Below the pieces are notes generated by a model that ran no database searches, was not told the origin of the DNA, and worked only from the letters and a program-made list of their open reading frames with translations. 64,000 nucleotides of DNA from Obrimoposthia wandeli (taxonomy: Eukaryota), in the NCBI GenBank assembly GCA_977020255.1, contig CDROCS010000943.1, positions 124,001 to 188,000 of the forward strand, read 5' to 3'. Below, in pieces: positions 1-54,200 of this stretch; positions within the stretch are counted from its first letter, which is position 1; every line of letters starts with the position of its first letter. The translations under genes and the position numbers were made by a program.

Positions 1-249
1 AATAACATCATGACGTTATAATCGATCAGACCAATTATCATCAAATCCCTTAATGACTTTAATATTTTTAATTTTCTTAAACTCAATACTAGTTAAACCA
101 GCTTCTCCATCTCCACCCTGATACCAATATATCTTATTGAATTTCGATTTAAAATATTTATTATTTTGAAGTAATTTACAAATAAATTGGGTTTTCCCAT
201 CTTCCACTTGGTCCTACAATTTGAAAATGGCATTGTTTTTCAACTCCAT
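1..249 (-). pseudogene. Polinton FtsK/A32-like packaging ATPase, N-terminal part, two frameshifts
   Basis: Reconstructs to MELKNNAIFQIVGPSGSGKTQFICKLL...IKGFDDNWSDRL*RHDVI. Walker A GPSG(S)GKT is split by a 1-nt insertion. It aligns with the ATPase copy at 14822-15330 (IEGFDVNWCERL-KEDVIIIDDL). Confidence 0.85.
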
Positions 250-279
250 AATAAATAAATGAATGGTAAGGAATAATGT

Positions 280-481
280 TTATAAGATAAAATAATTTAT
301 TACTAAACAAACACTGATACACATAAAACGAGTCTTCTCCCGGATTGAGCATCTGAATATCTTCATTATTTGTCCGGATGAGATTTCCGATGGCTTTGTT
401 GTGAATGAGTCTTCTCCCATGCTCTTCCAGATCTGAAACATCTTCTTCAACTTGCTTTTTAAAATAATTGGGAGTATACAT
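280..481 (-). CDS. small hypothetical Polinton ORF upstream of the ATPase
   Basis: ATG at 481, MYTPNYFKKQVEEDVSDLEEHGRRLIHNKAIGNLIR...; no family recognised. Confidence 0.35.
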
Positions 482-506
482 TTAAATAAGAATAAAATAT
501 TTCTGT

Positions 507-1114
507 TTAAGTGTTTGATAAAAAATTATAAAGACGAATTTGAGTACACATATTTTCAGAAGGAACGACAAAACTTCGCTTATTTTTTACAATATGAGAA
601 GCAGCACTAACAGACATAGAAAGATATAAGTAGGCTATAACAATTTTACAGCAGTATGTATTTCATAATGGCCACATACTAAAACATTTCCTCCTTTCTG
701 AATATTTTCTTTGATAATTTTATTTGTGCGTTTAAAATATTTCATTATTGTTTCATTCCTTTTAACGAAAACGGATCTATACTTTAACTTTTTATATTGA
801 ATTATATCAAATTGAGATGTATTGATAACATGAGTAAATCCTGTTTGAAGGAGCCCAGTTTCATCAGACCCATCACGATAATTACCAATATAAAGATGAT
901 TTATTAAAATTTCACTCATTTTCGTGCTTTCTAACTTCTCTTTAATAAAAACGCTATATCTAGAATCAATCCATATATCAAGAAGATGAGTCATTTGCAT
1001 CATTTCCATTCTAGAAGCATTAGCTATTAAAGGCTCCATAAAAGCTAATCCATTTAAAAATTCAAATCATCGTTCATCAATGTCATCCACTTCACTAATC
1101 ACTTTATCATTCAT
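507..1114 (-). pseudogene. dual-specificity phosphatase (DUSP/STYX-like) homolog lacking the catalytic motif
   Basis: HLYIGNYRDGSD...GFTHVIN N-terminal motif and GGNVLV strand. After a frameshift near 645 it continues IVIAYLYLSMSVSAASHIVKNKRSFVVPSENMCTQIRLY, the typical DUSP C-terminus. In-frame ATG at 1114 with one internal TGA. Confidence 0.8.
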
Positions 1115-1373
1115 TTTAGATCAAAATTAAATTGATTTTATGAAACCTTGATAAAAATTATTCAATTAACACTTTTTGATCTAATTAATTCATTGGTGCA
1201 GAAAAACAAATAATAATTTATGGGTAAAACAAATAATAATTTATTTATTTATCTATTTTACTAAATCACTTATTTAAAACATATTAAATCCGATAATAAA
1301 ATTGTTTTTGAAGCTAAAGTAATATTTTAGTTATTTTGTTATAACACTTGTTTTAGATCAAAATAACCTTTGT

Positions 1374-2225
1374 TTATAAATCAAGAAAAACACAAGTGAA
1401 CAGAGATATATTATACAAAATAACTTCAACTAGAAATACATAATCTAAAGTCTTTAAACCTAAAATCATAACTTTTCCACTTGCAAAAATGTTTACACAA
1501 AGTGGATTATACTTAATACAACGCAGTCCGGGAAATATTTTTGGTTCATAAACAGCATCAATTCCCATATTTTCACTCATCTTGTTAAGATTTATCCATT
1601 GTTTCAAGTCAACACTAACAGTAATCAATTGAATTCTTTCGATTTTTATATCAAATGGTAAAGTGCTTTCATCTAACACTTTTTTACAACCTATTATTCG
1701 ACACGAGCCTTAAAAATATTAATATTTTATAATAAAATAATTTACCAGATTTAAAGAGTACTATAGTATAGTCTAGAGTCTAGAATCCACATTCTCACAT
1801 TTAACAAATATCAAAGATTCGTTGAGAACACAGATGACAGATGAGCATCTGGAAGACCAATTAAAACTTAAAACCTCCATGTTAGAACCCGACATCAAAA
1901 TGTTGTCTCACAAGAAGCAATCTCAAAGAAGTCATTAAATTATTAAAAAGGTAAGTGAATAAATATAATTTTTTGTCTTAAAATACATGTTTACTTCGTG
2001 CAGTTATTAATTTAAATAATATTAATAAAAGGTAAAAAATTACAGTAAAAAATAGTTACACTTATTGACTGCGGCCTCATTGGGGGCGGCAAATTTATGT
2101 GTGGCCTCCACACATGAAAAGGTTCCCCACCCCTGGTCTAGACACTTGAGACGATATTTTTGAGGTTTCGATTTGCAAAAAGGTAAGTCCTTGGTAAGTC
2201 CCAATTTGATATTATGCAGAAACAT
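1374..2225 (-). CDS. TATA-binding-protein-like gene of Polinton 1, disrupted by a hAT insertion; 37-nt intron at 1709-1745
   Basis: C-terminal repeat YEPKIFPGL...VNIFASGKVMILGLK. Joining 2225-2136 + 1770-1746 + 1708-1374 gives a 450-nt open frame whose first-repeat end reads IVLFKSGSCRIIGCKK. Confidence 0.8.
1779..2135 (+). mobile_element. hAT (Charlie/GTF2IRD2-type) 3' fragment inserted in the TBP-like gene
   Basis: Translates ESTFSHLTNIKDSLRTQMTDEHLEDQLKLKTSMLEPDIKMLSHKKQSQRSH*. Right TIR GGTTCCCCACCCCTG ends at 2135. 8-bp TSD GTCTAGAG (1771-1778) / GTCTAGAC (2136-2143). Confidence 0.85.
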
Positions 2226-2695: not shown

Positions 2696-2927
2696 TTATA
2701 AAATCTTGTTTAAAATAAATCAATTAACACTATTTTATGATGTAATTAAATCATTGATGCGATAAAACAAATATAAACATTTAATTAGATTCTTCTATAT
2801 ATAATTTGTTTTAAATAATTAATAATGAACAATAATGTTCTAGAAACACATCATTTAACTATCATTGGTTAATATCTACATCGATTTTATATATAAACGA
2901 TGAGAAATTTCATAAATTTTGATAAAA

Positions 2928-3317
2928 ATGCAAGCCAATACCGATTTGTATCAACGTGTTCATACTTATCATGGTTACGAGATGCATTTTCTCAAGAACC
3001 CTATCCATTATAATTTCAGATATCCAGCATCGGTGAGAAAACAGAAATTCAATTACCTAATTTCAAACATTATTAAAGCTGATGTTGAAAGAATAAATAA
3101 AATACTTACAAAAATTAATTGTGAGTACTGTCTACAAGTACCCAAATTCATTATCAAAGGAGATGAAACCATTTTCAGAAATATATATGGCTCAATATTA
3201 ATTGAATGCCCAACTGAATTATAATGGAATATCAATATGAAGATACAAGGTTACAAGATCGGACCTAGTGGATTGGTGACTCCTATTTGGAAAATAATTA
3301 ATGGAATTAGTAAATAA
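2928..3317 (+). pseudogene. Polinton accessory gene, possible OB-fold ssDNA-binding protein; one premature stop
   Basis: In-frame continuation after TAA at 3222-3224 (WNINMKIQGYKIGPSGLVTPIWKIINGISK*). Colinear homolog at 30443-30846. Confidence 0.6.
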
Positions 3318-3559
3318 ATATTGTTGGATCTTTATTTTCTACTTTGTTTTCTCATTTATTAACAATAATAATTTATTAATAGGAAACAAAAGAACCTATT
3401 TAACCTAATGACATAACCTATAGTAAAATATATTTTGATCCTAAACATGCATAAAACTCTTACATCATTTAACCCTTTACATACATTTACTTGTTTTCCC
3501 ATTTAGTATTACATCATTTAACCATTTCCCAGGCTTCCAATATCTTATACTTTATTTTG

Positions 3560-4240
3560 AAAATTATGAATTTATTCCATCAAAATTTGACTTGGCCTAA
3601 CTAATGACTGGAAACCACTGAACCTTGGGATTTGAAATAATACTTTTCAGAAAGAGAGAAAGAAACTCTATTTAGAAATCAATAAATCATTATTTAAATT
3701 TAATTTTAAATCGAACATTCTACCGTTATTATAATTTCAAAAATATATTGATTTATCGAAAATCGCCTGAAAATTATCAATTAATTCCATCATATTTTGA
3801 CTTGGCCTAACTAATGACTGGAATTGGTTAACAATTGGGTTTTAAAATTATATAGTTCGGAAAGACAGAATGAAACTCTATATAGAACCTCCGATAGTAA
3901 ATTATTCAAGTAGTATTTCGAGTATTAAATAGCCTCAGTAATCGAAGTGGCCCGAAAGACACACGGTTTATTCCGTCTAAAATAGCCCTAAAATGCCTCA
4001 AAATTCAGATTTCCCTCCCCGTAAATTTTCCTTGAGCCTATAGAGACACGTAAAATTTACCTGAAAGTCACTCAAATAGCCTCAGTAATCAAGGTGGCCC
4101 GAAAGACACACGGTTTTTTCCGTCTAAATTTGTCCGAAAAGTAGTATATTCGAAAAAAGTTGACAGAAATTTGATGAAAAAAGATTCTAGCGCTGGTTCT
4201 TCGGGGGGGGGGTGGAGAGTGGCCCGAAAGACACATATCC
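3560..4240. repeat. Polinton 1 subterminal direct repeats
   Basis: TTTGACTTGGCCTAACTAATGACTGGAA twice (~3586 and ~3797). AAATAGCCTCAGTAATC..GTGGCCCGAAAGACACACGGTTT.TTCCGTCTAAA twice (~3927, ~4075), with a third GTGGCCCGAAAGACAC at ~4219. Confidence 0.8.
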
Positions 4241-4869
4241 CCCTACTGTTTTTTTATTCTACGATATTAGCCTATTATAAATTTATTATAATTTTGTCTG
4301 CGTTACTTGATGAAATAAATGGGAGAGGCGCCAAGAATAAATCTTTTTTAAAGGGAGGCTAAGTAACATAAAGTTTGAAAAGCACTGTTATAGAGATATT
4401 TGAAATTTATGTTCCGAATCTTTACAGCCATCAACCGATTAGTACATTTTTTCATTTTTCAGAGTTTTTTTTCAAATTACTGAGCTTTAGGAAAATAAGC
4501 AAATACTTTGTACAAACACACGTACTCGTGTAAGATTTATTTAAAAAAACTTTGACTTTATGAAGAATTTATTCCAAACTGGTTAAAAGCCTAATATGAA
4601 AATTACGGGTAAAATAAGCTTGATATTCTTCAGTGGGAGGAATATTTCAATCATAAATACATGTCTTTTAGAAGTAGAAAACTGTATTAACTTCAAGTTT
4701 ATATCCTGCAAAAATACATTTTCAATTTTGGAACATTATAAAAAAGTCTTTTTAATACTGCCTATGGATTTTCAATGATTAATTTGTATGAAAATATGTG
4801 TATTTTATAAGCCATTATCATTTTCAAAAATTCTCTATATTTAGCGATATCAATTATAACAAAAGTAGT

Positions 4870-5847: not shown

Positions 5848-6970
5848 TGTTGAAGTTCACAAATGACCTAGTAAAATTTTAAAATTTAATAAAATAAGCT
5901 GTATTTATAGTTTTGGCCAAGAACATAGGGAAGAACAACAAAAGTAAAATAACATTTAAATTAATACAAAAACCCAACAAAGAAAAATGTATTATCTTAA
6001 AAAATTGAATTAATTAATCTCAGGCGACTGGGATGCTATATTAGTCAGTCACTTGAGGTACAACATGTTTTTACGAGGCAGAGAAAAGTACGGAGGTTGA
6101 CTGAAGGAGATTTCATGAAAATTCCAAAAGCACCCGATTTATATTGTACATAGAACAGAAGAATAACCTTCCAAAATAACAGAGTTGTTTCCGATGAGAA
6201 ATCTGAAAATGAAATTATTATCGACAGTACAGACGTATTTTTTTGCTTCATTCTAAAATCATGTCTTTGATCAGTTAAACTTTATTTAAAATCTCACCTT
6301 AAAGTAATTTGCAATTTACCTACTTACCAAATAAACTCACGGACATGTAACGATCCCAGCTTTCTATAAAATCTCATCACCCCTAACTGAGCATCTGGGG
6401 GTAAATATCTCTCATTGAATTTTTACATATGATAACTTAAAACTGTAACAAACCACTTTGTATTAACTTTGCTATAATATATTATGTTTTTAGAATTTGC
6501 TAATTTTTATAAGGTAGAATAGCGTACGAGCAATAATTACAGTTGTAGTTGTCCAAAAGAAATCCCAGTGAATTGCACTAACATTATCACACCGAGTAGA
6601 GGTCGCGTATACCGAGGGCCATTTTTACCTTCAGGTTTGAGACAAAATCATGTTAAGCCCTACAAATGAGTCATATACTTTTAAGAAATCATGAGCTTGA
6701 GACTTTCCTAAGAAGTGTAAAAACTGTAGCCCAATGGTACTTTCTTGGTATATGTGTTGTCACAAAAGAAGCTTGACCTACATTTCTAATGGCAGACTTG
6801 TTAGCTTTTACAAAGTTTTACATATTTATAAACCGTGCCTTGTCATGGAAGAAAGGGTTAAGTTTAGTTGTAATCGATTTTTGTATATTTATTATGTTTA
6901 CTTATACAGGGTTTTCGAGGACTTCACACTGCCTTGCAAACACCACCACTTAAAAATAAAGTTTGCATTA
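5848..6970 (+). mobile_element. solo LTR, TGTTAAG family (copy A1)
   Basis: Starts TGTTGAAG and carries the TATTTATAGTTTTGGCCAAGAACAT motif and the internal hairpin. 6330-6700 is homologous to 48070-49160. Right boundary uncertain. Confidence 0.55.
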
Positions 6971-7522
6971 TCGTTTCTATGTTAATGTCGGCAAAATGTT
7001 AAGCCATTTTTTGTTTTATCGGATTCATGGTTTCCGGTTTTTGGGGATTTGGGGACTTCTCGCGAACACCACCATTTAGTCGTGATGAGACCTAAAAGCT
7101 CTAAAATATTCTACCAATGGATAAATATGTTGAACATATTTCTTTTTCACGCAATTAACATACAATTCTTATAAATGTTTCGTAATTTGTTAATTCTCTC
7201 CCGAACAAATTTTTGCCTGCGTCACTAGTTACAGTCAAAAACATCTCCAATGTAGAACTTGTGAAATTGTGCTTTATGATGACAATGATCTCGAATGTTG
7301 GATTAATCATACATCGCCAGTTCAGCTTACTAAAATGGCTCACTAGACATTCGTATTAAATCTATTAAGAAAGAATTCAATTGAGAAAGTCTCACATCGT
7401 ACACATTTAAAGTTTGAGAAAAAAATAGAGGCATTTGATCTGCAGTACAATCAATCGTTATACATCTAAACTCCAGCTGACAGATGTTCCCACGGAAACG
7501 TTGTAGGTAACTAGTTACTAGA

Positions 7523-8235
7523 TAAGGGATGGCAAACCTTTTTTGTCGCTGAACCAATTTTCTTTGGAAGCTAGTTGAAATACAATCTTTTTTAAAACAT
7601 ATCGAAAATAATATAAAACATTATAATGTATGTAATCTTTGTTTTTGGAAGCCAGTTTTTCTATATCATGCTTGTAATTAGTAAGCTTTAATCGTACACA
7701 AGCAGCAGTCCCAAACTATTGTGATGTGGATTTTTGATAAATTTATTTGAGAAAACATCTGTTCACATGCATGTGAAAAGTGCGTTTGCTAATAGTTTCA
7801 TTTAAATGAATGTGTTTGGTAAGAATATCCATTTTCGTATTATTATCTTTTCAACTTTATCGTCGATTGATTCGCCAAAACAGTTAATATTTATTTCCAG
7901 TTATATAATTAGCTCTATTTCCCAATGTTTTTTAAGTATCATATTGGTTGTGGGTTTGCTATCCTTATACTATTTAGTTAGTTTTCCCCAAATAAATGTA
8001 TTTCTGACTATAGATTTGCACATAAGAAGCGTTTTTGTCGTCTACCAAAGTTTATTGTGGCTTCAACCTACATACAATCATTCGCACTGGTCCAGGAATA
8101 TAAACACTGAATACAATTTTATAGCCTCGTTCAGTCAATATTTGTTACTGTTCAGCTGTTACCTTGCATGTAATTTGTAGTTTAAAAACACTTAATCTTG
8201 AATATCTTATGTTTTATAGTTTGCCAATGCGATAA
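7523..8235. mobile_element. possible hAT-derived non-autonomous element
   Basis: hAT-like end AGGGATGGCAAACCTTTT at ~7525 and a partial inverted copy AGTTTGCCAATGC at ~8218. Confidence 0.3.
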
Positions 8236-9437
8236 GGTTAATAAAGTTTATTGTGAATACAATATGCAAAATTAAAAAAGTGATTCAGAGATGAACGTAT
8301 TAAACCAAAACTAAATTCATGTATATATTGCTAAGGAATTTAAGACCTCTATGTCATAATTTCTTTTGTAACCGTCTGGTATTAGTCTCGATTAATTTTT
8401 CCGAAGACGTAGTCGCCATGTTAGCAGCTGCAACTTCCATTTAAGCCAAGACGTGATTTCAAAATTTTATTTATAAATCCGAATATTTAAACAATTATTT
8501 CAAATCATAATTGTGAATAATTTCAATTTGCATTTGTTCATATTTTCTTTGGAGAAAACGGATAGCCACGGATAGCCACGTATATAATACATAATTGTAT
8601 AACTATAAATATATAAATATTAATCGATTTATTTTACTTGGATATGATTATAATCCTTTATTTGTTCTATTTTAAATTTTAATCATTCAATTTAGATTTA
8701 AAATATATTCTAACAGTCATCAACAACCTTTGGGTAGGTTAAATACAAAAGTGTTGTGGAATGAAAGGAGAAAGTTTTGGTGGATTTTATTGGTGGAATT
8801 GATACAATGAAAACATTCGGGATAAAGCTGCAGGATGTATGTAATTTGGACTCGTCTTACATTATGAAAAAGCTTTCCTCGAAAGAAAAAAGCAGATAAA
8901 GTATATAATTATTTAAAATGTGAAACTCAATTGTAGGACATTATATTGAGGAGTTGGAAAATTTTGATTTAGGATATACCAAAATTTTCTCTTATAAAAT
9001 TGAGACTATGGTCGATCCAATTTGTCAAAAATCTAGACGACAACCAAAGCATTTAGAAAATCAATTAGACCTTGTAAAAGTCTTTGGAACTCACCTTTGA
9101 TCATTGTGAAGAGGCCAGACAATATGTGTGTTGACTATAAACAATTGAATGATGTTATCAATAAGTTTACATTTCCAATACCGGTTGCACAACTTTTGTT
9201 CGATTGTCTGGTTGATTCAAAAATATTTACGATATTAGATATTACCAGGTAGATCTAGAAAATGGGTCTCATACAACAACTGTCTTTAGTACAAAACTAT
9301 AACAATTTTGTTTCAATCGGTTGCCATTTAAGTTGGCTACAGTACTGGCAACATTCCTGAGTCTGATACATTAAATATTGGATGGTTTGCTGTTCAAAGG
9401 AACAATTGTTTATCTAGATGATATCCTTTTTATAGTA

Positions 9438-16700: not shown

Positions 16701-17985
16701 TTCAATAAGTCCCTAGCCTACCATAGAAAACAGAAAGTAACCAAATATATTTTTTTATTTTACAACAACATGTAACTATATAAAGTCTTTTTTTTGACAT
16801 ATGATCCATTTTTGTCGACACATTTTTTCCAGCGGATGATTAGTTCCCGGAAAGCCTTTTCAAAGAAATCAGGCTCACATTTATTGAAAAAATCACGAAC
16901 ATTGTTAATCAAATCATCTCTGCTGTCAAACTTAATGCCTCTCAAATGCTTCTTAAGATACTGGAAGATGTAGAAGTCACTAGGTGCGAGGTTTGGGCTA
17001 TATGGTGGATGATTCAGCAGAGAAAAGCCCATCTCCAGAATTGTCTGTCCTGTGAGGTTTGCAGTGTGCACTGGCGCATTATCCTGAAATAGCCATAAAG
17101 GTGTGTTTCGTGCTTTGCGTCTGTTCTGTCTTGTAATTGTTGCAAGATTACTGTAGTATGCTGCATTAATAGTGCTGCTTTCTCAGTGAAATTTAGTTTT
17201 ATAACACCCTTTGTGTCCCAAAACACTGTCAGCATTGTTTCTTTTCGATGAATTGGTTCCAATCTCATTTTGTTTGACGGATTCTCATTTGGAAACTTCC
17301 ATTCCTTGGATTCACGACGAGATTCGGGCAAGTACATAGAAAGAGTTGTTTCATCAGTTGTTACAATGTTACTTAGGAAACGGTCACCCCTCTGTTCATA
17401 AAGTTGCAAATTTTCAACACAGCACTCCAATCGATGATTCATCATTTCGCCAGTCAAAAACTTGGGCACAAATCTTGAACACAGTTTTCGAATACCCATA
17501 TATCTTTCACCATTGTGTGAAGGCTTCCCACACTGATATTACGACGAATGAACATCACTTTAAAAGAGATTCTGCGTTCATTATTCACGATCTTAATTAA
17601 TTTTCCCTTAACTTGATCTGGAATCTCTTGAGGTCTTCCCGTTCTTTCATCATCAAACACAGAATGCGACCATTTTTAAAATACTTGACCCACATTTCCA
17701 CAGTAGCATAACATGGATATTCACCCTTGTACGTATCTTGAAGCATTTTATTTATTTCAGTTGCGTTTAGTCCTTGCAAAACAAAAAACTTGATAACACT
17801 CCTGTATTCCACTTGATTTATCATAAATTTGAAAATGTGCCACTAAAAATATAAACAAAAGTAACACATTAAAATAAAGTATTTAGTTTTTACTTATATA
17901 TAATTATGTAGTTAAATGAAAAAATTAAGGATTGTATCTATCTTTTTACTATGGTAGGCTAGGGATTTATTGAATGTACCACGTA
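16701..17985 (-). mobile_element. mariner DNA transposon (DD34D), frameshifted transposase 17824->16760
   Basis: HTH N-terminus, SRFVPKFLT, VTTDET, QDNAPVH, HPPYSPNLAPSDF. TIR TTCAATAAGTCCCTAGCCTACCATAG at 16701 and its inverse at ~17949-17974. Confidence 0.95.
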
Positions 17986-48200: not shown

Positions 48201-51200
48201 TTAGTTATCCATATATTCTTGTAGTAATTTGTTTAGAGTCTACTAAATTTTATAAGGAACCCGACATATTTGAGGTAGAATAGCCTGTAATCAAAAATTA
48301 CAGCCGTTGTGAAGCTCTCATAAAGAACCACCTGCGAGTTGTGTTAACGTTATCCACCGTAGTATAGTTAATGCATACCGACAGATCATTTTACCTTCAG
48401 AGTTGAGATGGGAAACAGGCAGTGGTGGGATTCAAGGGTTCGCACCGGTTCGCGCGAACCGGTTCCTAAAAATATAAAAGTTCGCAGAACCGCCTGAACC
48501 GGTTCCTGGACTACCTTCTTCGACTGAAACGTAAAATTCAGCAAACATTTAACTACAATATATTAATATTTAAACATAAAAAAATCCGAGCACAGATTTT
48601 TTCATGTATATATAATATGGTGAAATGAACCTTCTACATATAACAATGGTTCAACCGTTTAAGTAAAATTGATAAATATATTTTAATGATCTTCCTGATT
48701 GTTGGAATGTGAAACAAGCCGAGATGTTTAAGCAGAAATACGATTGTTTAGTTGTTATAAACAAGAAACTAGGGTGTGATTCATGTGCCAAATTTGATGC
48801 TTTAACTGGAAAGGATAAACACATATCTAAAGAATGGAAGAAATGTAACGTTGAAGGACACGGGAAAAATAAAGCCGTTGAGCAGGCGTCTCTTAGGAAA
48901 AAAATGAACGACCATTTTACATCTAAAGCACACAATTTATGCGTTATGCATCTGAAAGAACGCGAAAATGATGGTATTACCAAAGCTATTGATAAAATAA
49001 ATGAAAATTTTAATAGCTCTACAAACAAAGTATTCAATACAGTTTATAGTATAGTAAAACCAGTGGTGGGATTCAAGGGTTCGCACCGGTTCGCGCGAAC
49101 CGGTTCCTAAACAGTTTGAATCCCACCACTGGAAACAGGGTATGCCCTACAGTAAGACATACTCTTAAAATCTCACGAATTAGAGGCTTTACTACGAAAT
49201 GTAACAACTCTAACCCCAACAAATGAATGATGAAAAGAATTTGGCCTCTCGCTGAACAGTAGATACGTGTACAAATAAAAAACATAGGTTAAAAAAAGCA
49301 TTTTTATGTATTGTGATTTTTAACTACAGAGAAAAGTGTAAAATACGATTGTGATTTGTAATTAAAACTGTCGTCTTCCAATATTGTAATCATCAATATC
49401 AATGATCAATGCTGAAGATATGAAGATATGTGGTGTAAATGCGAAACCGACCTATTGGCCGTCAAAGTGAATGTTATGAATTTGGTGCACCGCTGTGCTC
49501 AGCAGAATGTACAGCATTGAATTACAATTGAAAATGCACTTACTAATGAATTCACTCTCACTAACAAATTTACTTTATTGATTTAGTTGAAAGCATATGG
49601 TTGCTCTTTTCACTCAGAATTTAAGATGGACTTTATTTATTATATTGCTAATTAATAATTACATCTGACGACATTTGTTTCACAGAACAAACACTTGCAC
49701 TTGAACAATTTGATTGTGATGAAAAAAATGAAGTAGTATTTTAAGTATTTATATTATTTGCGCAAATTGTTTGATTTATTATGAACTAAGAGTAACATTT
49801 TAAGTAACTCATTATAATGTTTCAAAATGTGTCCTTAAAAACCAAAAGAAATTAAAATTCGCCTAAGAAAAATTCGGACATTTATTAAAGGTTTATTTTA
49901 GAACGTATACATTAATTAATAAATAAATACATGAAAATGTGTGGCACCATTTTTGTAAACCCTAATATATCCTGATTCACCCTGTCCATCACAACATTAA
50001 TACCGATTGTGGTTTGAAATCAATAAAGTATTCGAGTTTTCAGTTCTGATTGATCATTTGCATGTCGAGTTATTTTTGAGGAATTTATGTTATTATATTC
50101 CCCAGAAATTTTGAATTGGGGACCACTGGGTGATTAAAGTCATTTTCAACAAATTGTATTCCCTCAGTTTCTTAGAAGTTAAGTGAATGCTTAGCATAGT
50201 GGCTCCTCAGGTGACATGACTTATGATGTCATCTGAATTCTGAGATTCACGCTTTGGAATTGTCTGCAACAGCTTTCTTATGTATATTTGCCTCAAAAGA
50301 CTTGACTAATTTTCTTATCTTATCATCAATGTCTCTTGATGTTAAGTAACTCCCTTCTTGAGTAAATTAATGTTTCACATATCCCTTTTTGGGTTTTAAT
50401 TTTAATATTTAATCATTTCCACTTGTCCTTAATATGTTCTTGATCAGGACTATAAACAACTTTTTTTTTAAAAAATCTTTATACTAACCGTCAATTTATG
50501 AATATTGTTTTTCCATTTTTTATTTCAGATTATATTTATAATTATTTTCTCTACACTGTCAGAGAATACATTCACGTTGTTTGCAACAATTTTCTCAAGT
50601 TCTTCATCGGGAATATATTTTGATTTATTTATTGTCTACAGATTCTGCATTTCACATTTCTCTTTAGAAAAATTTCATGAAAAAATTATTGAAGACATTG
50701 AGCGTGATCTTGTCACAAAATTCTGTTGTAGCTCACGGCTAGGATATGTTTGTAAGATTTAAATATAATTAGAACTATTTCTGTTAGCGCTATGACTATT
50801 TAAGTAACCCTAAAACATTTTACCTTGCATTTCCAAGTAAACATTATCGCTATTATTGAAAGAAGTGTTGCAAAAAAAACGGGTTTTTTGCGTTTCCATA
50901 AGTTTTTTCAATATACTTAAAAATATTACATAATATCCTTAGAATCTAATTTTTATTAAATTATACTGTAAAAAATTAAAATCTAAAAAAATCATCGTTT
51001 CAATAATGAACAAATAAATAATTAAAAAATAAAAAAACTACTTAACCATGTGATTTATTAAAATACAAATATGTTAATTTTTCAACACGTTCATCAGTGA
51101 GTCTATTTCTTTCTGTGGAATGAACATTCTTCATTAATGACCAAACGTTTTCGCTTGAACCAGAGGATGTATATTAATAATCACTTGGCAGTTAAATCAA

Positions 51201-54200
51201 AATTAAAATAGAACAAAGTCCTGGCAAACACTCAAACTATAAAGCAATTTATGCTAATCCGTGTCAATTTGGAACTTGTCATTCCATTCAATTTTATTAT
51301 AATTGTCAGTTCTTGTGACAAATTGAATTAAACTTATCCATATATTTTCATTATTTCCTATGATGAAATCAAAAATTGATTTCCATTTGTTTATTCTTGC
51401 ATTTAAGATCTTAGCTACATGTGCTATTGGTTATGAAATCTTTCCTTTTTTCAAAGATCCCAGATATTACTTGTTCCTCAATTATTTATCTTAAAGACGC
51501 CATAAGTTTATCAATTCTTGGTATAACATGGTGCATTCGAGCCTCATCTCCTTCAAAATATAAAGTTTCAGTTTTTATAGGTAGTAAGATTTTTAATGAT
51601 TTTTGTACTACATCTTTAAATAGCAATCATGAATACTTTTTACCAGTAAATTTTTGTATAAGCGGTCTGGTAGTTCATGGGCAATACCCATTAGTAATTC
51701 ATGAGCCTCTGATATACGCTCAAACATTTCACTTAACGAAACCCAACTTGTTATAACATACTTACCAGGACTTTGTTCTATTTTAATTTTGATTTAACTG
51801 CCAAGTGATTATTAATATACTTGACGATTTCATCACAATGTTTCACTAATTCATTAAGCCAGTATTCACATTTTAATATATCAGATACAAATAGATTCAA
51901 TCCATGAGATATGCAACAGTAAGTTATTAAATGCTTATATTTATCTTTAAGGATTTACCAGGCTTTTTTTCATATTTGCTGCATTGTCAGTAACAATTGA
52001 TGTTACTTTATCAGAACCCAATTCGTCTATAACAGCAGAAATCCTAGTTGCTATTAAATCTCCTGTATGCATAACGTTTGATAAATTTTCAGCTTTATAA
52101 AATATTGGTTTAGGTGTCAATACAACAAAATTAATAATACAGTCATCTTTAATATTTGACCAACCATCTGAGGCAATTGAGAGAGATGGTGCTTCCCTAA
52201 TTATTTTATTGATTTTTTCCTAAAATATAAAGATAATTTATTAACTTCCTAAAGTTACTTTGGATTCAAGATATATTTCAAATTGCTAGACCATCATTCG
52301 TAGCACATATTCCATCGATAAATGATTTATCTGGACGACTTCTCGAATAAATATATCTTGAATCCAAAGTAACTTTAGGAAGTTAATAAATTATCTTTAT
52401 ATTTTAGGAAAAAATCAATAAAAAAGGTGACTGTATTATTAATTTTTGTTGTACCCTAAACTAATATTTGACCAACCATCTGAGGCAATTGAGAGAGATG
52501 GTGCTTCCCTAATTATTTTATTGATTTTTTCCTAAAATATAAAGATAATTTATTAACTTCCTAAAGTTACTTTGGATTCAAGATAAATATTTCTTCGAGA
52601 AGTCGTCCAGATAAATCATTTATCGATGGAATATGTGCTACGAATGATGGTCTAGCAATTTGAAATAAGGCCTTAAAATCCTCCGACAATGTAGTATCAA
52701 GAGAAGTAGAACTATTGGTTATGGCTCATTTTCTGAAATTCATTTGACATTTCTTTAAATGTTCAGCAAGTCGAGTTGAACTTGCTTCTGTTAGCTCCTT
52801 AGTGCAAGATTTGCACATAAAAACTAAAATAATATATAAAATTAGTAAATCATAACTTACTTTTGTACTTTCCATCAGGGCATTCCACTAAATCAAAGTT
52901 CTTCAAAATATCTAATTTTAAAACACCAGGCATATTTGCTAATATCATATTATTTAAACAAATATTATATTCTTTCGATTTAAAAAAAACAATATGTTTT
53001 CAATTAAAAAAAGTATTTTTCGTTTTTTTTGTTTCTTTGTTGTTTTTTTCATCACTAATTGAAAGTCATATTTTAGGACGTTTCATGGTCTCTCTATATG
53101 GTGGTGACAATCGTGTAATTGTTTCGTATGAAAAAAGTACATCTTTCCTGGATTCCTTATTCCAATCCTTAAAAAACATACCGAAATTAAATTTTCTTTG
53201 GTTGGGATTATTATTGAAAGGTAGTAGCGACGGGTGTGTACAAAGGGCAGGGATGTAATCAGCGCAAGCTAATGACTTGCACTTACTAGGGATTCCTCGT
53301 TCATGTGGAAAAATTGCAATCCACAATTCCTGATACGACAGTGTTTCAGCAGGTTACCCGGCCATTTCTAGCTAGGATTGAATACTCGCTGATACTGCCA
53401 TTGTAGCGCGCGTGCGGCCCCGGACATCTTTTTATGAGCTATTTCAATATATAACTACAAATTTAGTTTATTCTATTTGATTTTTTATAATCCACATTCG
53501 CCGAAAAATATGAGTTTGGCATCGATACAACGAGTGAAATGTAGATATTTAGCCCGAATGAGTTTCGTTAGCGTCCATTTAAAAAATAAGATATTTTTGC
53601 TGGCAATTATAATAGTTTTACTTTTTTATAAAATGAAGTTTATTATAATCTAAAATATAATTTAGTCGTTTATTTATGTATTCTAAATTTCTGATTATCT
53701 TAAAATTATTATACCAATTTAGAATAAAGTTTATTGACAAAATATATATTTAATTTTTTAAAAATATAATAAAGGAAAAGTATAATAAATAATAAAAATA
53801 ACTAGAAAAAAGTAATCATTCGTGTAATTTAATAAAAATATATTATTAAACCATTATGTTGATAAATTAAATTTAAATTACAATAATATTTTAAAATTAA
53901 CAGTAAAATTAAATATAAAGTATAACAAAATTTATGTTAGAATCACTTTCAAATTTTATGTACCTTATAACTTGTGAGATTTCCAAAAATTTCAAAATTT
54001 TCTTTTGATTAAAAACTTCATTTTGTAATTTGAATTAGATTTAAAATATGCAAAATATTAAATTATTTTTATTAATTTATTATTATTCATTTTTATAAAC
54101 GTATATTTCATTTAATATTAGAGTTTTAATATGAATCGCCCATTGACAATAAAGAAGAGTCTTATCTAATAAACACAATTTTCAGACTCGTCACTTCCTC

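Follow-up and report, generated by a model that had tools for sequence, protein, structure and literature searches.

Beta- and gammaherpesviruses encode TBP-like factors (BcRF1, ORF24 and UL87) that, in the accessible text of PMC4893493 and PMC12529657, serve a nuclear DNA virus by bringing host RNA polymerase II to late genes through a one-base variant of the TATA box (TATT). In the available part of Ravarani 2020 (PMC7221094), two glutamates of the TBP C-lobe are linked to TFIIB, and a basic patch of the N-lobe is linked to TFIIA, TAF1, Brf1/2 and Mot1; most viral TBPs are reported there to lose the stirrup glutamates, with a TFIIB of their own encoded by the virus, and the word "Polinton" has 0 occurrences in that text. 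For MELD viruses with an adintovirus-like PolB, Starrett 2021 (PMC8502044) labels, in the legend to Fig. 5, a gene as "similar to TATA binding proteins", which, like the gene described below, places a TBP gene in at least one Polinton-class genome. Within the accessible portion of that paper the label stands in the legend only, which gives no anatomy, promoter or function and does not tell a compact from a full-size type, and one supplement contains no match to TBP or TATA.

Vertebrate Polintons, or Mavericks (Barreat and Katzourakis 2021, PMC8097293), share with the elements analysed here their terminal inverted repeats, AGT-type ends, a 6-bp target duplication and genes for pPolB, integrase, ATPase, protease and capsid proteins. 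In the part of that paper available they are described as intronless and neither TBP nor TATA is mentioned, whereas the present elements carry an accessory gene with a predicted intron of 37-40 nt. The literature searched, which includes the accessible text of PMC8097293, PMC10748475 and two 2026 preprints, yielded no description of a Polinton mini-TBP family or of its promoter box, although one may exist in figures, in supplements on bioRxiv or in papers behind subscription. What is already published is a bare TBP label on a Polinton-class genome; the anatomy of the family and its box were not found described.

The gene that we call mini-TBP lies in the window, the whole 64,000-nucleotide stretch of Obrimoposthia wandeli DNA that was analysed, and it is surrounded there by the remains of a Polinton:

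1 to 249, minus strand: 5' part of an A32-type packaging ATPase gene, frameshifted, running on to the left of the window
500 to 1066, minus strand: dual-specificity-phosphatase-like gene, frameshifted (PF00782, E 1.5e-6, below cut-off)
1374 to 1708, minus strand: exon 2 of the TBP-like gene, with strand 5 of lobe 1 and the entire lobe 2
1709 to 1745, minus strand: predicted phase-1 GT-AG intron of 37 nt, from comparison of siblings and lineages
1746 to 1770, minus strand: 3' part of exon 1 of the TBP-like gene, with strand 4 including the family-conserved first-lobe Phe
1771 to 1782, minus strand: short filler of palindromic sequence with an imperfect second copy of the target, where the insert is truncated
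1783 to 2135, minus strand: first 353 bp of a hAT-type element, with a single terminal repeat, at 2135
2136 to 2225, minus strand: 5' part of exon 1 of the TBP-like gene, a 30-codon piece with its ATG at 2225
about 2928 to 3310, plus strand: element gene without a name, ATG at 2928
3557 to 4247, no strand assigned: terminal inverted repeat with an AGTAG-type end at 4247; partner end at G000:C943:119414
4248 to 4253, plus strand: 6-bp target-site duplication, 5/6 bases identical to the left flank

A preliminary description of this locus had divided the gene into three minus-strand pieces, and these are confirmed: 2136-2225 with its ATG at 2225, a piece ending at 1746, and the frame 1374-1709, which is open over 111 codons. 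The relationship to TBP that it claimed stands as well, exon 2 alone matching PF00352 with an E value of 7.8e-11 (42.1 bits against a Pfam cut-off of 22.9) and matching 35 sequences in the PDB, every one of them a TBP or a TBP fusion. The window copy is a dead allele within a deleted Polinton, and it is broken in several places. Its exon 1 is 30 nt short relative to 16/16 aligned siblings, the loss lying near 2196-2201, and exon 2 carries private changes at two conserved residues: the second stirrup glutamate is charge-reversed in this copy alone (34 of 35 siblings keep it and the remaining one has a stop), and a serine retained in 30/34 siblings and in 48/48 family proteins is altered. The view that the gene stayed intact until a single hAT insertion does not survive these lesions, to which the deletions and frameshifts of the element itself are added. 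The 149-aa reading offered as the functional form has the length of a damaged allele, the two exons of the siblings summing to about 157-159 codons. As for the first repeat, which had been described as shortened, it is genuinely short in the family, but part of the shortening seen in the window is an artefact of the 30-nt loss from exon 1.

The interrupting sequence had been taken for a hAT insert with clean target copies spanning 1771-2135; it comprises only the first 353 bp of the element (1783-2135), with one end and palindromic filler. We apply the hAT label on the basis of a terminal motif and an 8-bp TCTAGA-type target, which we take to be characteristic. A complete hAT element would have a terminal repeat at each end and be flanked by a clean 8-bp duplication; one end only is present here, and the far end was not found within 1.5-kb flanks. 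The family is very young; 41 matches were obtained among 109 candidates, 40 of them were scored, nearly all are 100% identical, and the roughly 40 scored copies all continue past base 353. The family copies at L134-L144 are identical and have TCTAGA-type targets. A frame that interrupts another Polinton copy (L033:6854-8618) is presumably a hAT-type transposase. When uninterrupted copies inside Polintons were looked for, the insert had no counterpart at 29/29 sibling loci, and the packaging ATPase adjoins the TBP-like gene at all 29. Because the hAT piece is identical to its own family whereas exon 2 differs from its siblings at 11-21 positions per 324 bases, the window copy probably acquired the hAT fragment last, after its other lesions.

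The element of the window is a decayed Polinton of 8,834 bp, internally deleted, with ends at 4247 and C943:119414. A Polinton had been named as the carrier from the outset, and terminal repeats, core genes and target duplication agree with this. Both termini read AGTAGGGGG, and the segment 3557-4143 has an inverted match to L032 at 81%. The element retains the ATPase together with fragments of integrase and PolB, and it has lost the protease, most of the integrase and most of PolB. The gene order of the siblings is ATPase, rve-chromo integrase, putative minor and major capsid frames, C5 protease and pPolB; in these copies pPolB, rve integrase, A32 ATPase and C5 protease all reach the Pfam cut-off, the ATPase ORF matching Pox_A32 above it. 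A conserved 424-codon frame occupies the place expected of the major capsid gene and has 0 Pfam matches, the capsid names being given solely from size, position and conservation.

Several other features of the element and its surroundings were recorded. The phosphatase-like gene (window 500-1066, minus strand, and L175:6274-7068) has a catalytic loop without the arginine and likely encodes a pseudophosphatase; its family-B homologue scores above the Pfam cut-off, and the gene has been deleted from most of the family-A siblings read. AT-rich repeat blocks (1137-1180/2695-2738 and 1258-1309/2291-2342) precede the phosphatase-like gene, the TBP-like gene and the small genes, and are candidate early-promoter elements. 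Polintons of differing families are nested or lie side by side at L184-L186, L190-L193 and L204-L207. Elsewhere in the window are near-perfect nested inverted and direct repeats (52127-52667), common short ends with a Tc1/mariner-type transposase remnant (5893, 15644, 40746, 47738, 51169-51820 and 16760-17538), and a segment (6538-9437) with a 93% copy located 20 kb leftward.

One broad clade of Polintons/Mavericks carries the TBP-like gene as a conserved accessory gene. The virus-like element occurs in this animal genome in copies that number in the hundreds. In a genome search 150 of 30,329 candidates were scored, and 150/150 matched at 90-100% identity. Four families in the Obrimoposthia wandeli genome carry the gene, and exact donor-site patterns occur at least 489 times for family A (21 bases) and at least 1,816 times for family B. 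Thirty-five sibling copies were read, which are best-scoring or hand-picked loci rather than a random sample; 21 have both exons open with GT..AG, 13 are broken and one is cut off. In sequence databases 11 relatives were found at 46-59% identity, and of 206 pattern matches from a scan of metagenomes, 81 were confirmed and 80 kept. A Polinton core gene is present at 39 of the best 63 metagenome loci, and at 14/16 of the loci of at least 4 kb. A profile search returned 52 representatives at E values up to 1e-30. IMG/VR held no relative of the TBP-like family (0/30 pattern matches) and, by pattern, none of the ATPase (0/9); with alignment it gave 5 distant ATPases, which were not used as controls. 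From the phage collection came haloarchaeal-virus TBPs alone, none better than E 2e-4, and the ESM Atlas yielded nothing but generic TBP clusters.

The locus L175 (near 5890-5970) is a family-B copy with 1.3-kb terminal repeats in which 1.8 kb, including the TBP-like gene, has been lost between direct repeats. Polinton-type loci with full-size, two-lobe TBP-like genes (L118, L123-L126, L129, L130 and L132) fall outside the compact clade and are possibly separate acquisitions. The host itself has two TBP genes arranged head to head (G000:C238:871783-873996), as well as two intron-free divergent TBP/TRF-like genes and another split TBP-like gene (C60, C1092 and C968).

In a tree of 41 rows, whose bootstrap is not fully settled, 18 compact proteins stand on one side of a branch with support 100/99, and the AU test rejects (p 6e-5) a grouping of the three intron-bearing families of this genome with its two host TBPs. 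On these sequence comparisons the compact family is a clade separate from host TBP. Changes shared among siblings number 18 synonymous to 14 replacing, against 28 to 80 for private changes (Fisher p 0.002), and pooled pairwise dN/dS is 0.10-0.41 among siblings, the pairs being non-independent; as judged from these substitutions, the family is under purifying selection. One could read the gene as a captured, decaying host TBP copy, that is, a processed pseudogene with no role in the element, given that the window copy is broken and that 14/35 of the siblings read are broken or unscorable. This reading is ruled out by the purifying selection acting on the shared changes and by the AU test, which rejects the grouping with host TBP. 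The relatives at 46-59% identity are spread across many datasets and the donor-site matches (at least 489 and 1,816) across two families, which also speaks against it, and we give it practically no credence. Branching inside host TBP, the TBP fold and the location within Polintons had been named in advance as the three points on which the initial proposal could fail; all were examined, and none went against it. The designation as a divergent TBP paralog is correct insofar as this is a compact TBP-fold gene of a Polinton, but "paralog" claims too close a kinship for a family that branches outside eukaryotic TBP/TRF.

The 37-nt segment at 1709-1745, which had been proposed as a splice segment, has the expected GT..AG termini, and its splicing is predicted. 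The same termini are found in 32/36 copies read, and 31 of those 32 have a segment of 37 nt. Removal of the GT-AG segment restores the frame, at a position common to relatives. At the same codon and in the same phase, segments of differing sequence occur in family B (38 nt), in family C (39 nt) and in the metagenome locus L088 (40 nt); in the tree, families A, B and C come together with support 91/85, whereas L088 is placed elsewhere without support. Full-length database relatives without the intron are colinear across its position, family D of the Obrimoposthia wandeli genome has no such segment, and a split at this position is seen in 1 of the best 63 metagenome loci. For family A, an exact pattern for intron-free genomic copies gave 0 matches. 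Contigs of four runs, all derived from one sample, gave no junction spanning the 37-nt segment, an outcome that is uninformative about its splicing. The C2208 copy, with an open frame of 153 codons, was considered as an intron-free candidate and proved not to be intron-free in the part read. The host TBP gene has an intron of 47 nt by hand count, which makes a size of 37 nt plausible for this host. The segment of 37-40 nt at one codon in four lineages would thus be a spliceosomal intron, as predicted from its sequence.

The fold was modelled with AlphaFold2 on a 12-row alignment for an unbroken relative, P0005, which is 53% identical to exon 2. The model has a pLDDT of 93.4 and superimposes on yeast TBP with a Z score of 13.2 (rmsd 2.6 over 149 residues), as compared with 6.5 for the best non-TBP fold; as modelled, the unbroken relative takes the two-lobed TBP saddle fold, in agreement with what the preliminary description had anticipated. 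Strand 5 of lobe 1 is not followed by a helix, none is present between residues 51 and 64, and the helix-H2 columns are gapped in 90-98% of 48 family proteins. In the same alignment, three of the intercalating Phe whose conservation was to be checked are kept (F190 and F207 in 100%, F116 in 98%), but the column of the fourth, the first lobe-1 Phe (F99), is gapped in 48/48, with another conserved Phe 8 columns earlier. With one wedging Phe lacking an aligned equivalent, DNA bending may be weak. Both glutamates of the acidic C-terminal stirrup, E186 and E188, are retained in 96% each. The DNA face carries fixed changes, namely N159 to Ser (100%), V161 to Thr (83%), L205 to Asn (100%), V122 to Arg (98%) and T124 to Met (100%). 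The numbers given for F99, F116, F190, F207, E186, E188 and the changed positions are those that we take to apply in yeast TBP. Strand 1 was offset by four columns in the MAFFT alignment, and the structural range of the model (residue 1 on yeast 66) suggests that N69 is kept.

The positions discussed by Ravarani 2020 for TFIIB and for the basic patch would correspond to E186/E188 and to H2, respectively. A genome-wide search for the TFIIB family (PF00382) gave 12 matches among 29 candidates, and the three that were read resemble host BRF-type genes. No TFIIB-family match occurs in the element copies read, although a very divergent TFIIB among the unnamed ORFs is conceivable.

Short TATA-like boxes mark the genes of the element, and three of them lie at this locus:

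277 to 284, minus strand: TATAAACA box, 35 nt ahead of the ATPase start
1371 to 1378, minus strand: TATAAACA box, overlapping the TBP-like stop codon and facing the downstream genes
2892 to 2899, plus strand: TATAAACG box, 36 nt ahead of the ATG at 2928

TATAAAAG and TATAAATA are the boxes named for comparison with TATAAACA. Counted over distinct upstream regions, where 0.04-0.32 occurrences are expected by chance, YATAAACR is present within 70 nt of the start in 19/21 ATPase, 8/10 major capsid, 11/13 DEDD-like and 2/2 orfZ genes, mostly at 32-42 nt before the ATG. It is found within this distance in just 2/8 minor-capsid and 1/8 core-protein starts, several of which carry the box 99 nt upstream. 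TATAAACA is biased toward the sense strand, with sense/antisense counts such as 6/0, 8/0 and 8/0 where 0.3-0.8 would be expected. The upstream regions of the TBP-like genes have YATAAACR in 0/47 and a canonical TATA in 22/47, versus 6.2 expected; that of the window copy shows no clear canonical TATA by eye. The variant TATA-like box thus precedes late-type genes and not the TBP-like gene, a trait of the herpesvirus mimics.

At L036, L054, L060, L088 and L175 many genes have the box at a distance of 32-38 nt ahead of their ATG. The early-branching compact members (L103, L105, L106, L108 and L110) have a longer first helix, and most of them favour CATAAACA. A small Met-Gly ORF overlaps the integrase start in another frame (L054:4656, L060:4504, L088:3377 and L080:1483) and is preceded, at about 33-48 nt, by a box of its own; that it encodes a myristoylated virion protein is a guess.

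None of the six loci whose TBP-like genes are full-size has a sense copy of the box, and some of these loci have a canonical TATA before the capsid genes. Another Polinton lineage of the same genome (PLA2-rve integrase, DJR capsid, Adeno_PX) has no TBP-like match and shows the motif in 1/22 upstream regions, counted in four copies with the first ATG taken as the start. The negative controls consist of this one TBP-less lineage and of a few elements with full-size TBP, the chance expectation being low in any case, and gene and motif are confounded with lineage.

Considering the fold, the kept and changed residues and the placement of the boxes, we regard it as somewhat probable, reasoning from sequence, that mini-TBP is a late-gene switch of Polintons that uses host TFIIB and Pol II via TATAAACA. 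Of the two functions suggested in the preliminary description, redirection of Pol II to promoters of the element is thus the one favoured, and antagonism toward host TBP stands as a rival. In the mechanism that we propose, the TBP-like gene would be made early, from a host-type promoter, and its transcript would be spliced where the mini-intron is present. The protein would bind TATAAACA before the packaging and capsid genes and recruit host TFIIB via the kept acidic stirrup, followed by RNA polymerase II, which would turn these genes on; the missing helix H2 would allow escape from TFIIA, TAF1, Brf1 and Mot1. "Late" is taken here from the type of gene and not from timing, and we infer the splicing at 37 nt, the DNA binding, the recruitment of TFIIB, the escape through loss of H2 and the early/late timing. 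A point against the proposal is one family-B copy that lacks the TBP-like gene but keeps its long terminal repeats and its boxes, an observation as compatible with action in trans as with dispensability.

The base at position 7 of the box bears on which protein reads it. We assume that the Phe pair entering the DNA between bases 7 and 8 is the lobe-1 pair, and lobe 1 is rebuilt in mini-TBP. In the accessible text of PMC1935006, the YWTAWADN consensus does not include C at position 7, and the site where the second Phe pair enters lies between bases 7 and 8. The box could instead be read by host TBP or by a forkhead protein, mini-TBP being a decoy that sequesters TFIIB or blocks TATA boxes and thereby damps host transcription. 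ATAAACA is also a forkhead-type site, a likeness that lends this alternative some appeal, and host TBP would presumably bind a C-at-7 box through a Hoogsteen mechanism. According to the title of PDB entry 1qn3, a host-type TBP complex with a C(-25) variant has been solved, and host TBP can bind such a box. A rebuilt DNA face, one lost Phe and TFIIB-facing glutamates kept at 96% would also suit a decoy. We nevertheless consider it unlikely: apart from the single region mentioned above, the box is missing from the TBP-less lineage of the same host, it is missing from all 47 TBP-like upstream regions, and the fixation of the DNA-facing changes at 83-100% suggests a selected new specificity rather than decay.

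The small size of the protein, its loss of helix H2 and one Phe, and its usual position next to the packaging ATPase could alternatively point to a minor-groove DNA-bending or packaging factor, which would act at the termini, the replication origin or the virion core and be unconnected with transcription. The conserved acidic stirrup has no obvious use in packaging, however, and the gene is 0/47 for the box of the structural genes and so is not co-regulated with them, which makes this role improbable in our view. Were the box a core promoter, its position 32-38 nt ahead of the ATG would imply leaders of just a few bases. Such strict spacing and very short predicted leaders would also be expected if the box mimicked the late promoter of a co-infecting larger virus, in the style of virophages, with mini-TBP merely tuning or competing; helper-shared promoter motifs do appear in the accessible virophage/PLV literature. 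Spliceosome-type introns and an integrase point instead to nuclear expression by host Pol II, no helper is known for these elements, and we think such mimicry highly improbable.

The late-gene switch can also be put in a stronger form, which we advance tentatively, as a possibility that falls somewhat short of probable: this would be the smallest known viral early-to-late switch, built from a 150-residue TBP with a rebuilt DNA face and a private TATAAACA box, using host TFIIB directly, beyond the reach of TFIIA, TAF1, Brf1 and Mot1, and gated in some lineages by a host-spliced mini-intron. The window's own allele, being dead, contributes little to this. For the timing of capsid genes and the viral behaviour of Polintons, a single small factor with a matching box would provide a direct handle. 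If the proposal is true, mini-TBP would be a natural minimal TBP that shows which surfaces are dispensable for Pol II initiation, and factor and box would form a candidate orthogonal pair; thousands of genomic copies could also switch on host loci that bear the box.

With cellular TBP (PF00352; PDB 7o4i, 1tgh and 1ais) mini-TBP shares the saddle fold, and it retains the Phe pair of lobe 2, a single Phe of lobe 1 and the acidic stirrup. It differs in its length of about 150 aa, in having no H2, a short H1 in lobe 1 and one Phe without equivalent, and in its identity of about 25%, its fixed changes on the DNA face and its separate clade. The TBPs of large dsDNA viruses, in the available part of Ravarani 2020 (PMC7221094), also keep the L5.1 Phe and lose the regulatory patch of the N-lobe, but they keep the stirrup glutamates in about 40% and come with a TFIIB of their own, whereas 96% of the mini-TBP family keeps both. 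The herpesvirus mimics are large and belong to a multi-subunit viral complex, and the model of ORF24 cannot be reconciled with TFIIB being bound directly, as far as the accessible text of PMC4893493 and PMC12529657 describes them; mini-TBP, in contrast, is a single domain of 150 aa in which the TFIIB-facing residues are kept and the variant base is a C at position 7. By this comparison mini-TBP likely works in the manner of a herpesvirus TBP mimic, while belonging neither to that family nor to canonical TBP.
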